DNA from: an uncultured Candidatus Saccharibacteria bacterium
GTDB lineage: Bacteria > Patescibacteriota > Minisyncoccia > Minisyncoccales > Staskawiczbacteraceae
DNA: 61,131 bases
NCBI GenBank assembly: GCA_964475855.1
Contig: CAYZAV010000004.1
Location: 1 to 61,131 of the forward strand
Direction: 5' to 3'
This document shows, piece by piece, positions 2,922 through 15,960 of this stretch. The translations under genes were made by a program, and so were the position numbers. How positions within the stretch are numbered: the stretch's first letter is position 1; each line of letters starts with the position of its first letter. The notes below the pieces were generated by a model, which worked only from the letters and a program-made list of their open reading frames with translations, ran no database searches and was not told where the DNA came from.

Positions 2922-3012
2922 GAATTGCTGAGCAGAGCGAAGAAATTCACCTCGAAAATTAGGCTTAAGTAAATAGTATACCTTGAGGCCTAATTTGCGC
3001 GGGATACCTTGC
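2922..3012 (-). repeat. Copy A of a conserved 91-nt structured 5' leader, directly abutting the dnaK ATG
   Basis: Aligns base-for-base with 52543-52633 and 60313-60403. Contains GAGGTGA (SD-like) followed by a hairpin that ends at the start codon. Confidence 0.8.
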
Positions 3013-12789: not shown

Positions 12790-14628
12790 TTACTTCCCTT
12801 TCCGTTCAGCCTGTTTGGCGGCCATTTCGGTCAGATACATTTTACGGATACGCACCGTTTTTGGGGTAATTTCTACCAGTTCATCGTCGCCGATGTATTC
12901 AAGCGCGTCTTCCAGTTCCATGATTTTTGGGGTATTAAAATGTTCGTCGCTGCCTTCACCTTTTGATCGCATGTTGCTAAGCTGTTTGGTTTTGCATACG
13001 TTCACGCGAATGTCTTCGGGTCGGCTGTTTTGGCCTACCACTTGGCCTTCGTAAATGGGTACGGCGTGGTCTAAAAACAGCACTCCCCTATCCTGTACGT
13101 TGATCAAGCCATAGTAATTCGTTGTGCCTGATTCGCTGGCAATGAGCGAGCCGTTAATGCGTTCTCTCCAGTTCCCTGGGTCGGCCTGGTAGTCAAAAAA
13201 GCTGGTGTTCATAATTCCCAAACCTTTGGTATCAGTTAAAAATTCACTACGATAGCCAAACAGCCCTTTGGTCGGGATGATAAATTCCAGAAACACCGTA
13301 TTGTTGTGGGTGCGCATATCTTGTAACTCTCCTTTGCGCCCGCCCAGTTTTTCCATAATAGCGCCTTGGTATTGTTCAGGGACTTCAATAAATGCCTTTT
13401 CATACGGAACCAGGGTTTTGCCTTCAACTTGTCGCACAATAACCTGGGGCCTTGAAACGGAAAATTCATAGCCTTCGCGCCGAAGCCGTTCAATCAAGAT
13501 GGCCAAATGCAGTTCACCACGGCCCGAAACTGTCCAACTTGAGCCTCCTGCGGCATTGGTGGTGTTTTCTTGGACACGCAGCGCCACATCGGTTTCCAAT
13601 TCTTTAAATAATCGTTCACGAATTTGGCGGCTGGTGCAAAATTCCCCCTCTTTTCCGGCAAATGGGCTGTCATTAACCATTAGCATCACTTTTACGGTCG
13701 GCTCTTCTATATTAATAACCGGCAAGGCAATAGGGTTTTCAATATCGGCAATGGTCTCACCAATGGTGGCATCGGGAATTCCGGCAATAGCGGCAATGTC
13801 GCCGGCACCGGCCTCTTCTGCTTCAATTTTTCCAAGCCCCGAAAAGGTCATTAGTGAAGTTAAACGATATTTTTTTTGTACTCCCTCCCGGTTAATCTGC
13901 ATCACTTCCTGGCCGGCTTTGATTGAGCCATTGTAAACACGGCCGATGGCAATGCGGCCTTTGAAATTATCAGCGGTAATAGAGGTGACCAGTAATTGCA
14001 ACGGTTTATTGACGTCAGCAATAGGCGCGGGAATGTACTGGACGATGGCGTCAAATAGTGGAGTAATGCTGTCCATGGTTGCCAAATCAGATACCAATCC
14101 GGCCTTGCCTTCACGTCCCGATGCGTATAAAACCGGGAAATCAAAGGCATTTTCTCCGGCTCCCAATTCCAGAAATAATTCATGGGTAGCTTCCAGGGCC
14201 CATTCGGACCTCGCGCCCGGCTTATCAATTTTATTGATAACAACGATAATTTTGTGGCCCATCTGCAGGGCTTTCTTAAGCACAAAACGGGTTTGGGGCA
14301 TAGGGCCCTCTTTGGCATCAATTAACAGCAAACAGCCGTCTGCCATGTTTAGCACCCGTTCCACTTCCCCGCCGAAATCCGCGTGACCGGGGGTATCTAT
14401 GATATTAATTTTGATATCGCCGTATTGCACTGCAGCATTTTTGGAAAAAATGGTAATACCACGTTCTCTTTCTAATTCATTGCTGTCCATGATCATTTCC
14501 TGGGCCGCTTCTTCCTTTTTCATGTGCGTTTTGCTTTGCCGCAAAAGCGCGTCCACTAGGGTAGTTTTGCCGTGGTCAACGTGAGCGATAATTGCAATAT
14601 TACGAATCAAGCTGTGAATGGGTTGCAT
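12790..14628 (-). CDS. typA: Translational GTPase TypA/BipA
   Basis: IRNIAIIAHVDHGKTTL, DTPGHADFGGEV, NKIDK. 612 aa. Confidence 0.95.
   Translation of the reverse strand: MQPIHSLIRNIAIIAHVDHGKTTLVDALLRQSKTHMKKEEAAQEMIMDSNELERERGITIFSKNAAVQYGDIKINIIDTPGHADFGGEVERVLNMADGCLLLIDAKEGPMPQTRFVLKKALQMGHKIIVVINKIDKPGARSEWALEATHELFLELGAGENAFDFPVLYASGREGKAGLVSDLATMDSITPLFDAIVQYIPAPIADVNKPLQLLVTSITADNFKGRIAIGRVYNGSIKAGQEVMQINREGVQKKYRLTSLMTFSGLGKIEAEEAGAGDIAAIAGIPDATIGETIADIENPIALPVINIEEPTVKVMLMVNDSPFAGKEGEFCTSRQIRERLFKELETDVALRVQENTTNAAGGSSWTVSGRGELHLAILIERLRREGYEFSVSRPQVIVRQVEGKTLVPYEKAFIEVPEQYQGAIMEKLGGRKGELQDMRTHNNTVFLEFIIPTKGLFGYRSEFLTDTKGLGIMNTSFFDYQADPGNWRERINGSLIASESGTTNYYGLINVQDRGVLFLDHAVPIYEGQVVGQNSRPEDIRVNVCKTKQLSNMRSKGEGSDEHFNTPKIMELEDALEYIGDDELVEITPKTVRIRKMYLTEMAAKQAERKGK
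13430..13441 (+). repeat. TGTCGCACAATA copy 4 (inside typA)
   Basis: Exact 12-mer. Confidence 0.95.
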
Positions 14629-14736
14629 GAGATGAAATTAAATAAATATATGTTTAATAAGCGAACGTTGACAAGGGAGGGGCCGGGAGGGAAGCATTCC
14701 CTTCCGTGTAGGAAAACAGTGAGGCGAAGCCGAGCG

Positions 14737-14829
14737 TTAGAAACCGAGGGTTTCTAAGGAGTGAGCCGCCAATAGACGGCGAGCGACGTCAACGTGTGCA
14801 ATTATGGCGATGTTGCGAATGTTTTTCAT
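14737..14829 (-). pseudogene. Displaced typA 5' fragment / 30-codon uORF (MKNIRNIAIIAHVD then out of context)
   Basis: The first 14 codons encode the TypA G1-motif N-terminus. Versus the real gene (14554-14586) there are only synonymous third-position differences. It then reads into GC-rich hairpins and ends in TAA. Confidence 0.6.
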
Positions 14830-14849
14830 ATGGGATTACAATAAAAATA

Positions 14850-14878
14850 ATTCTATCATAAAATTTTACCGGTGTCAA
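14850..14878 (-). promoter_or_regulatory. sigma70 promoter, TTGACA-17 nt-TAGAAT, in front of the displaced typA fragment
   Basis: TTGACA at 14873-14878 and TAGAAT at 14850-14855 on the minus strand. Confidence 0.6.
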
Positions 14879-14919
14879 AGCATAAAAAAACCGCGGCGAT
14901 TAGGCTACGGTTTGATGGT

Positions 14920-15285
14920 TTAATTAAACACGGCAATTCCGTCGGTGAGGTTGCGCGAACTGCAGTGGAATGTCCTGTTAGATTGAGTGGCTTTGAAGGC
15001 ATGCATAACATCGCTGTTGATGGCGCAAAGGACAAGTTTGCCATTAGCTTCACGTATCATTCTTTGCAGAGTGATGAATTTGCCAAGACCCACCCAGCTG
15101 AAATAGTAGATATTGCCAAAATCAACCAGGAGTTTCTTTTTTCCTTGGCTGACAAGGGTGAAGAGCTCTATACCCATTTGCCAGATGTCATCCGCACTTA
15201 CAATTTTTTTGACTTTGAACGTGACATGAGTGATGTCGGTTTCGGGAATGTCTTCATGCTCAAAAATCTGGATCGGATCGGCCAT
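14920..15285 (-). CDS. STAS-domain protein (anti-sigma-factor antagonist-like), copy 1
   Basis: Start MADPIQIFEHED with AAAGGAAA SD. KKKLLVDFGNIYYFSWVGLGKFITL is typical of a STAS fold. Confidence 0.75.
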   Translation of the reverse strand: MADPIQIFEHEDIPETDITHVTFKVKKIVSADDIWQMGIELFTLVSQGKKKLLVDFGNIYYFSWVGLGKFITLQRMIREANGKLVLCAINSDVMHAFKATQSNRTFHCSSRNLTDGIAVFN

Positions 15286-15430
15286 GGCGGGTTTCCTTTC
15301 TATTCTATGGAATTGGGAAAGAACGGACAATAGTTTTCAAAATTATAGCACATTTTTGTAAAAAAACAACCCACCTCATCCTTTCCCGATCTTTGGCACA
15401 CGAGAAAGAGAAGTTCTGTATACAATCATC

Positions 15431-15442
15431 TGTCGCACAATA
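15431..15442 (+). repeat. TGTCGCACAATA copy 5 (intergenic, next to the STAS-2 terminator)
   Basis: Exact 12-mer. Confidence 0.95.
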
Positions 15443-15477
15443 AAAAAACCGCGGCGTTTAGGCTGCGGCTTGATGGT

Positions 15478-15843
15478 TTAATTGAACACAGCGAGTCCGC
15501 CAATGAGATTCTGCGAATCGCAGTTGAACAGTTTATTGAGCCGAGTGACTTCGAACACCTCGAACACATCTTCATTGATGGCACAGAAGACCAGCTTGCC
15601 GCCGGCATCGTTGACCAATCTTTGCAGGGTGATGAACTTTCCCAGCCCGGCGGAGCTGAAATATTCCACGTTTCCCCAGTCGACCAGGAGTTTCTTTTTC
15701 CCTTGGTCGGCAAGGCTGAAGAGCTCCGCCCCCATCTGGCTAATCACGTCATCAGTTACAATTTTTTTGACTTTGAACCTGACATGAGTGATGTCGGTTT
15801 CGGGAATGTCTTCATACTCAAAGATCTGGATCGGGTTGGCCAT
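15478..15843 (-). CDS. STAS-domain protein, copy 2 (tandem paralogue)
   Basis: Start MANPIQIFEYED. The roughly 85-nt upstream region (15851-15935) duplicates 15301-15385, including TGCTATAAT. Confidence 0.75.
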   Translation of the reverse strand: MANPIQIFEYEDIPETDITHVRFKVKKIVTDDVISQMGAELFSLADQGKKKLLVDWGNVEYFSSAGLGKFITLQRLVNDAGGKLVFCAINEDVFEVFEVTRLNKLFNCDSQNLIGGLAVFN

Positions 15844-15960
15844 GACAGGCTTCCTTTCTATGGAATTGGGAAAGAACGGACAATAGTTTTCAAAATTATA
15901 GCACATTTTTGTAAAAAAACAACCCACCTCATCGGCGGGTTGTTGCAGACATGAAATATC

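Follow-up and report, generated by a model that had tools for sequence, protein, structure and literature searches.

Why does the gene for a conserved translational GTPase carry its own beginning twice? The question is raised by typA (bipA) in a contig from an uncultured member of the Patescibacteria (CAYZAV010000004.1, positions 1 to 61,131; this whole stretch of DNA is referred to as the window, and positions are counted within it), where a G+C-rich insert stands between a broken-off copy of the typA 5′ end and an intact gene furnished with a replacement start. We put a probability of about 0.6 on the reading that the insert is a structured insertion element of Patescibacteria that lacks an open reading frame (ORF) and whose site is chosen by base pairing. 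The family is apparently undescribed and duplicates the end of the gene that it enters; a limited literature search, which included a recent survey of non-coding families, found no description of such an element.

Read in the direction of the gene (minus strand), the locus begins with the native typA promoter, a TG-extended TTGACA-17-TAGAAT that matches the consensus at 11 of 12 positions (14850-14878). Similar promoters lie immediately 5′ of the typA start in relatives; the present output of this one is a truncated gene start, termed c1, followed by transcription into the element. The c1 copy (14788-14829, minus strand, with its ATG at 14829) is the displaced original 5′ end, 14 codons encoding MKNIRNIAIIAHVD, and is broken off after the His-Val-Asp of the P-loop, where the G+C-rich insert follows. 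Its frame reads through into the insert, continuing as VARRLLAAHSLETLGF to a stop, and forms an ORF of 30 codons (14737-14829, minus strand). The second copy, c2 (14575-14607, minus strand), contains the working codons for IRNIAIIAHVD, is continuous with the remainder of typA, and is the pairing partner of the guide segment described below. The intact gene (12790-14628, minus strand) encodes 612 amino acids with all of the TypA Pfam domains (GTP_EFTU, GTP_EFTU_D2, EFG_C and BipA_C), and its replacement 5′ end starts MQPIHSL. The new ATG (14626-14628) and the six extra codons QPIHSL leading into c2 belong, together with an A+T-rich stretch, to an element-side spacer (14608-14660, minus strand) that was homologous among the window and three loci from relatives, L004, L073 and L076.

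The duplicated, synonymously diverged 5′ end that a first-pass annotation of this DNA had described was thus recovered in all its features on the minus strand at the positions it gave. Specifically, the consensus scan returned the strong promoter, a comparison of both 33-nt copies returned seven differences, all at synonymous third positions and with the G/C-richer codons in c1, and the functional gene indeed starts from the element side, which supplies the replacement 5′ end. The internal promoter fared worse. Proposed as TTGTCA-17-ATATAT, it was rescored as TTGTCA-18-TATATT (10/12), was found in the window only, and its "-35" belongs to the conserved guide; by the same scan rule the corresponding site was weak in L073 and absent in L004, L075/76, L080 and L081.

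A comparison of related typA loci, which the first-pass annotation had proposed as a way of telling which 5′ end is ancestral, marked the c1 form as the normal start. The N-terminus usual among relatives was M(x)NIRNIAIIAHVD-HGKTT in more than 110 of them and M(x)(x)IRNIAIIAHVDHGKTT across 67 related loci and 120 related proteins; c1 is therefore an ordinary gene start, and the seven-residue extension ahead of c2 is the unusual part of the gene. Over 33 positions, c1 differed from the relative L003 at 3 and c2 at 7. The typA loci nearest to that of the window came from Candidatus Staskawiczbacteria and other Patescibacteria. The same comparison gave no clean ancestral empty site. A conspecific typA (P0001/L070), 99% identical, has a plain MNIRN start and no insert, and was considered as such a site; over its first ~95 nt it shares 95% identity with the L005 lineage, while the window 3′ of c2 and the rest of the gene are L003-like. 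L070 is therefore recombinant, and it documents a 5′-end polymorphism and recombination within the species, not the polarity of the change.

The insert is not peculiar to the window. It was present at the same codon boundary, after the GAC of His-Val-Asp, in L004, L073/L083, L074-77, L080 and L081, and the element thus occupies the identical typA codon in no fewer than six further lineages of Patescibacteria, from unrelated samples. These bearers were found via TypA proteins with seven-residue extensions, via peptides of the form ..IAIIA(H/Q)VDV(A/T).. and, for L004, in a scan of related loci; a profile search with the c1 peptides added only the two divergent copies L080 and L081 and, in L082, a different element occupying that site. 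In the bearers a second copy of the gene start followed 115-250 nt after the insertion boundary, and repeats of 26-46 nt between c1 and c2 were seen in all copies. In L004, L073 and L076, c1 and c2 were identical over 26-33 nt, yet these sequences differed between the genomes, and in the divergent L080 and L081 the duplication reached as far as the start codon. The c1 copies of four lineages end CAR GTY GAC, which replaces His with Gln. The elements measured 115-190 nt and their cores 80-155 nt; L081 represents a minimal form, with a core of 80 nt and neither of the helices H1 and H3.

In the TypA tree, the four close bearers were placed inside one 10-member Staskawiczbacteria clade, where they were mixed with the non-bearers L003, L005, L006, L071 and L070, while L081 was located on a far branch; the pattern of presence costs five gains or losses. 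A covariance model of the core (R1) matched all known copies at 58-118 bits, with the window core (14673-14787, + strand) at 118 bits. Run over 501 kb of the window and loci, including ~60 other typA loci, it gave no convincing further copy; a weak match in L057 was rejected, lying inside coding sequence. A scan of JGI metagenomes and IMG/VR with a pattern of H4 and the guide recovered only L073 and L077, and no viral match.

What recurs is a fold. The conserved core occupies 14673-14787 on the + strand, the stretch matched by R1, and comprises the helices H4′ (14685-14705), H3′ (14723-14731), H2′ (14737-14757) and H1′ (14765-14780), all on that strand, with the single-stranded motifs AAGGGAGGGG and CCGTGTAGGAAAACAG and the 3′ end GAGCGAC. 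Two of these helices are the hairpins named in the first-pass annotation: the perfect 9-bp hairpin, TTAGAAACC-CTC-GGTTTCTAA at 14737-14757, and GGAAGGGAA-TGC-TTCCCTCCC at 14685-14705. Between lineages the core retained 55-83% identity, where four-fold sites of typA were at 30-41%, that is, at saturation. By RNAalifold and pair counting in the + orientation, 98% of cells were paired in H4′, with compensatory double changes in 6 of its 9 pairs, and 82% in H2′, with such changes in 3 of 9 (two copies being misaligned there by a longer loop), which makes 9 of 18 pairs for the two helices together. The whole structure outscored 500 of 500 column shuffles, and slid controls were 34-50% paired vs 90.5% for the structure. 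H1 and H3 varied in length, with expansions of 30 and 40 nt, in the manner of peripheral stems. The copies differ by indels of 1, 30 and 40 nt and therefore share no ORF. Rfam contained no matching family, either at gathering scores over the whole window or at E<=10 on both strands of 14400-15000, where only chance matches were returned.

Directly beside the core lies the segment on which the proposed choice of site depends. This guide, GCGAACGTTGAC on the + strand or GTCAACGTTCGC on the typA strand (14661-14672), is complementary to the Ala-His-Val-Asp codons; it forms a conserved block, RTCWACRTKCGC, that is the reverse complement of GCN CAY GTN GAC in c2, the final base of these codons being the insertion point. 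Between 8 and 12 contiguous pairs joined guide and c2 in 7 of 7 copies, and 90.5% of cells in the helix (positions 13-24 with 102-113 of alignment A7) were paired. Moreover, the guide changed together with the codons. On the typA strand the block reads GTCAACGT in the window and L081, where c2 has CAC GTT GAC; GTCAACGTGCGC in L076, where c2 has GCG CAC GTT GAC and the helix is 12 bp; GTCTACGTGCGC in L080, where c2 has GCG CAC GTA GAC, again with 12 bp and with a double change; and ATCAACAT in L004 and L073, where c2 has CAT GTT GAC. Covariation is therefore seen at two positions, His CAC/CAT with G/A (pair types GC, AU and GU) and Val GTT/GTA with A/T in L080 (AU and UA), and the Ala codon GCG goes with the 12-bp guide helix. 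The guide can also pair with c1, though less well (84.5%).

Three further properties agreed on which strand this structure serves. Every non-Watson-Crick cell of the guide helix was A.C on the typA strand and G.U on the + strand of the window; the fold was more stable on the + strand by 5.8-10.8 kcal/mol in 7 of 7 copies; and the GC skew of the + strand was +0.23 to +0.31 at the element and negative in typA. Because wobble pairs, fold energies and the excess of G over C agree, the functional strand is taken to be the + strand, and together they point to an intrinsic orientation of the element antisense to typA. The strain pair L075/L076 had 0 differences in ~2,960 nt of typA and downstream DNA and 6 within 56 nt of the element (alignment positions 239-294). 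Four of the six are C>T on the + strand, and three make a C-G pair of H4′ or of the guide helix U.G; one more change of the C-G to U.G type was found in H4′ of a second genomic copy. The cluster reflects either a local mutational hot spot or recent copying via an error-prone or deamination-prone intermediate.

That second copy comes from elsewhere in the same genome. In Logan contigs from the runs of the source study, one contig carries the equivalent of 14671-14768 with 7 substitutions and 2 gaps, over 17.6 kb at a depth of 35.6 in run X1 (typA 36.6) and over 7.4 kb at a depth of 94 in run X3 (typA 95). It has a long H1, as in L073, and parts from the typA copy precisely at the guide. In the + orientation it reads GTGTAGATATATC-TATCAA-GATATAGCTAC, followed by the core, and the GATATAGCTAC in the position of the guide is complementary (10/11) to GTAGATATATC, six bases upstream. 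The frame upstream, ..VDISIKI*, resembles the C-terminus of ribosomal protein S10. Another contig (4,302 nt; depth 44.8 in X1 and 98.3 in X3) opens with 14759-14788, the last 30 nt of the core, and then reads AAGTTATCACGGGGTAGTATTTGAAAAAAA, which is suggestive of a third copy of the element at another locus of the genome. On these sequences, at least two further copies appear to be present in the genome, one of them with a different sequence at the guide position that may pair with its own upstream flank.

Among the related typA loci, several other arrangements touched on the same position or gene end. L071 (3600-3760), which has neither c1 nor core, carries a seven-residue extension, MQTTQSS, and, resembling the element-side spacer, a leaderless promoter (TTTACA-17-TATAAT, 7 nt, ATG); this start represents either an insertion that has decayed or the type of gene start from which the spacer arose. 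In L080 (926-949), a third typA-start fragment of 21 nt (ATGGAAATCAGAAACATCGCC, then TAA) lies just 5′ of c1 and may be the trace of an earlier round of insertion. L082 (2499-2680; JGI 3300037264 Ga0393283_0090860) contains a different G+C-rich insert, a long hairpin of ~85 nt, at the same typA position after the GAC of His-Val-Asp, followed by a new start, MTNQSP-IRN. The core model gave no match there, the 7-nt loop at the hairpin apex (TCTACGT) complements the GTA GA codons in the truncated copy, and an NgoPII-type restriction-modification pair lies just upstream of the insert. At the opposite end of the gene, in the Daviesbacteria-like L047 (4693-5513; CAYQAW010000010.1), a direct repeat of ~110 nt, made up of the typA 3′ end and a further 35 nt, encloses an A+T-rich insert of ~610 nt with small ORFs on the other strand, a different cassette that duplicates a gene end.

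How might such an element work? In the + orientation the locus would be read as typA body, reverse complement of c2, spacer, guide, core and reverse complement of c1, and the guide would complement the stretch starting at the insertion point, namely the antisense of the P-loop Ala-His-Val-Asp. On the typA strand the element would be only a passenger, with c1 yielding a short dead-end peptide and typA being initiated anew at 14628; the insertion would be tolerated because the duplicated gene end and the start codon of the spacer keep typA translatable. In the proposed mechanism the guide would select the target, the active form would be a single-stranded nucleic acid of + polarity, either single-stranded DNA (ssDNA) or, at other loci, RNA co-transcribed with the host gene, and the chemistry would be performed by a trans-acting enzyme or by the fold itself. 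The seven differences between c1 and c2 in the window are as expected if c2 arrived with the element.

A more specific version of the base-pairing reading can be offered tentatively, at somewhat less than even odds. It describes a self-addressed programmable insertion module: a folded + single strand of ~100 nt in which a guide of 8-12 nt places the insertion at the 5′ edge of the helix, which copies the displaced gene end and so lets essential genes survive, and which has no gene of its own and would be either a small ribozyme or a handle for a trans-acting enzyme of the candidate phyla radiation (CPR). The typA copies lie antisense at a 5′ end, and in such a module targeting would therefore proceed by sequence alone, independently of host-gene transcription, which would speak for DNA as the target and possibly for ssDNA as the intermediate.

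Several points weigh against the reading of the insert as a mobile element with a guide. We infer that the element is or was mobile, no movement having been observed, and no clean empty site was found in the same species. The covariation of the guide amounts to two or three independent events among seven sequences, and the other genomic copies, in Logan contigs of four runs of the source study, are known through 30-nt contig overhangs only. The neighbourhoods of the bearer loci contained no shared gene and no enzyme linked to the element, and the consensus scan found no promoter on the + strand. The identity of c1 and c2 over 26-33 nt in three genomes implies gene conversion or, alternatively, that the target was duplicated on insertion. 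Finally, the stop of the c1 ORF lies inside H2 in four copies (TAA, TGA or TAG), which may be a secondary adaptation or could mean that the transcript of the typA strand is also under some selection.

An integrase-dependent mini-element, of the kind left when a larger element, targeting the typA 5′ end in the way that SXT/R391 targets prfC, loses its interior (a remnant like a cis-mobilizable element), is the alternative that survives best, though we regard it as unlikely. Here c1 and c2 would be attL and attR around a short conserved recombination region still movable by a tyrosine or serine recombinase encoded in trans, and the flanking direct target repeats, the new gene start from the element side and the end of c1/c2 identity 7 nt before the junction in L073 and L076, like a crossover region, all suit it. 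The 8 bearer loci contained neither a full-length relative nor a recombinase gene, and the pattern scan of metagenomes gave the mini form only; the element is equally small everywhere. Inside, it forms a conserved, covarying fold, a property not required of att arms, and the inverted copy of the target stands 35-190 nt from either repeat vs 6-8 bp in core-type recombinase sites. Additionally, copies elsewhere appear to retain the core while the guide differs.

The first-pass annotation had itself weighed two interpretations, the scar of an element or recombination event that targeted the GTPase-motif codons and a regulatory upstream ORF (uORF). The targeting in the former stands, every copy being inserted after the GAC of His-Val-Asp, and the scar does not, because the core has stayed conserved at distances that saturate the neutral sites of typA, its helices covary and further copies lie at other loci. 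The latter amounts to a cis-regulatory leader of typA, in which a tandem duplication gave rise to a structured RNA and to c1 as a translated uORF, the conserved block pairing alternately with c1 or c2 to tune translation. The block is able to pair with either copy, the c1 frame is open in all copies and is preserved by the 30-nt insertion in L073, the stop codons built into H2 in four copies are each accompanied by a compensating change, and in L080 and L081, which have no internal promoter, the uORF ends 12-14 nt ahead of the typA start, such that coupling is plausible. We nevertheless hold a leader to be improbable: instead of the arrangement common to all relatives that had been named as its hallmark, the insert is missing from most close relatives, including the 99%-identical conspecific allele, and from 60 related loci; pairing and folding are better antisense to typA, with the mismatches on the typA strand being A.C; the same core occurs at unrelated genomic loci; and c1 has exchanged His for Gln in four lineages. 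The first-pass annotation had also placed the insert 2 kb from the G+C-rich island beyond typA; no sequence or repeats were shared with that island (8.4-12.7 kb).

A small self-splicing or otherwise processed intron that joins c1 to HGKTT in the RNA would fit the site, within a highly conserved catalytic motif as for many bacterial and phage introns and inteins, the guide-like pairing with the upstream exon end and the early in-frame stop. It is very improbable, given that no group I or II match was obtained at E<=10, that the fold is on the antisense strand, that the unstructured A+T-rich 3′ third, the start codon of its own and a full duplicate of the exon end are superfluous for an intron, and that minimal copies hold only ~80 nt of core. 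That the arrangement is an artefact of assembly, which the first-pass annotation had named as a possible refutation, or that two typA alleles were joined into a chimera, can be dismissed, although contigs broken in or near the region in several assemblies might point that way. Logan contigs of several runs and an independent ENA assembly (L001) give the identical sequence, the parts are evenly covered (depth 29-37 in X1 and 88-95 in X3), six other lineages from unrelated samples have the same architecture, and the breaks near c2 arise because 31-mers are shared with typA of other species and with other copies of the element.

Other candidates were rejected outright. The c1/c2 differences are not adenine-specific, as a diversity-generating retroelement would make them; ribosomal bypass of the T4 gene 60 type is excluded by the lack of a stop after the take-off codon and by c2 having its own start; and in the case of a homing-endonuclease cassette, the intact target remaining in c2 would leave the filled allele without immunity. 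Nor was the sequence related to a 91-nt mobile leader that this genome carries at 2922-3012 and elsewhere. As separate observations on the data and the neighbourhood, the first 30 nt of L007 are an Illumina adapter fused to typA P-loop codons, an assembly artefact in a public metagenome-assembled genome, and directly upstream of the typA promoter the window contains tandem duplicated STAS-domain genes of 136 and 149 aa (14873-15933), with bodies 76-80% identical and an 83-nt upstream block 98% identical.

If the guide truly selects the site, the element would represent a programmable insertion of DNA at a chosen sequence that is free of any protein gene, occurs in bacteria with the smallest genomes known and strikes essential genes where their codons are most conserved. 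Such a mechanism would matter to the study of mobile elements and, potentially, to genome engineering. For annotation, the element accounts for duplicated gene ends and for the N-terminal extensions MQPIHSL, MESKHTK, MENNKNQ and MQSSSNS in CPR typA, as well as for orphan "genes" of 30-58 aa ahead of it, and contig breaks at such places are to be put down to repeats. The typA copies contribute a 5′-end antisense case, wobble evidence for one strand, and a near-identical strain pair changed only in the element.

How the typA element compares with known systems depends on which of its traits is considered. Rescue by a replacement gene end is familiar: phage 21 and e14 in icd, and the islands that target dusA, rebuild the gene that they enter. 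Islands in tRNA genes likewise have the order of gene body, replacement end with element, and displaced original end, and here the typA 5′ end plays the gene end; with the element at a 5′ end and antisense, the spacer must therefore supply a start codon and, in the window, perhaps a promoter. The integrative and conjugative elements of the SXT/R391 type integrate in the 5′ end of prfC, according to a passage in PMC2791158 (Hochhut & Waldor 1999, as cited there). They share with the typA element the entry into a conserved gene (prfC encoding a paralogous translational GTPase), target repeats at both ends, and a replacement gene end with synonymous differences that keeps the gene functional. They differ in being 10-100 kb long with their own tyrosine integrase vs 115-190 nt without an ORF, and their att sites form no covarying fold and include no separate target-complementary segment.

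Choice of a target by pairing has its own precedents. In IS200/IS605 elements, a guide segment inside the element reportedly recognizes the target by pairing with it. These, together with palindrome-associated transposable elements and with the repetitive extragenic palindromes and bacterial interspersed mosaic elements (REP/BIME) that have REP-associated tyrosine transposases, resemble the typA element in apparent single-strand action, hairpins near the ends and an internal guide, and non-autonomous copies moved in trans are a further shared trait. However, the IS200/IS605 guide is 4-5 nt vs 8-12 nt, hairpins and ends differ, and neither target nor gene end is duplicated there vs a 26-46-nt repeat at every typA copy; a Y1 transposase was not tied to the typA element, no genome-wide census of transposases having been made. 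The bridge (seek) RNAs of IS110/IS1111 and the omega RNAs and right-end element RNAs of IscB/TnpB are structured, 100-200 nt long and equipped with short programmable segments complementary to a target, but they lie beside a recombinase or nuclease gene vs no adjacent ORF here, and their Rfam models gave no match; IS110, additionally, leaves no long duplication. Mobile group II and group I introns, through their exon-binding and intron-binding sites (EBS-IBS) and the internal guide sequence of P1 (IGS-P1), also pair a short guide with the sequence abutting an insertion point in a conserved gene. They differ in having a ribozyme core, none of which matched here, in being far larger and in splicing vs rescue by duplication, and the fold of the typA element is on the strand opposite the host gene. 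That the element is a categorically new kind has roughly even odds, and it could still be a non-autonomous derivative of a known class; an ORF-less fold of 100-200 nt, a guide and the duplication of a gene end are, in any case, united in this element and in none of the systems compared.

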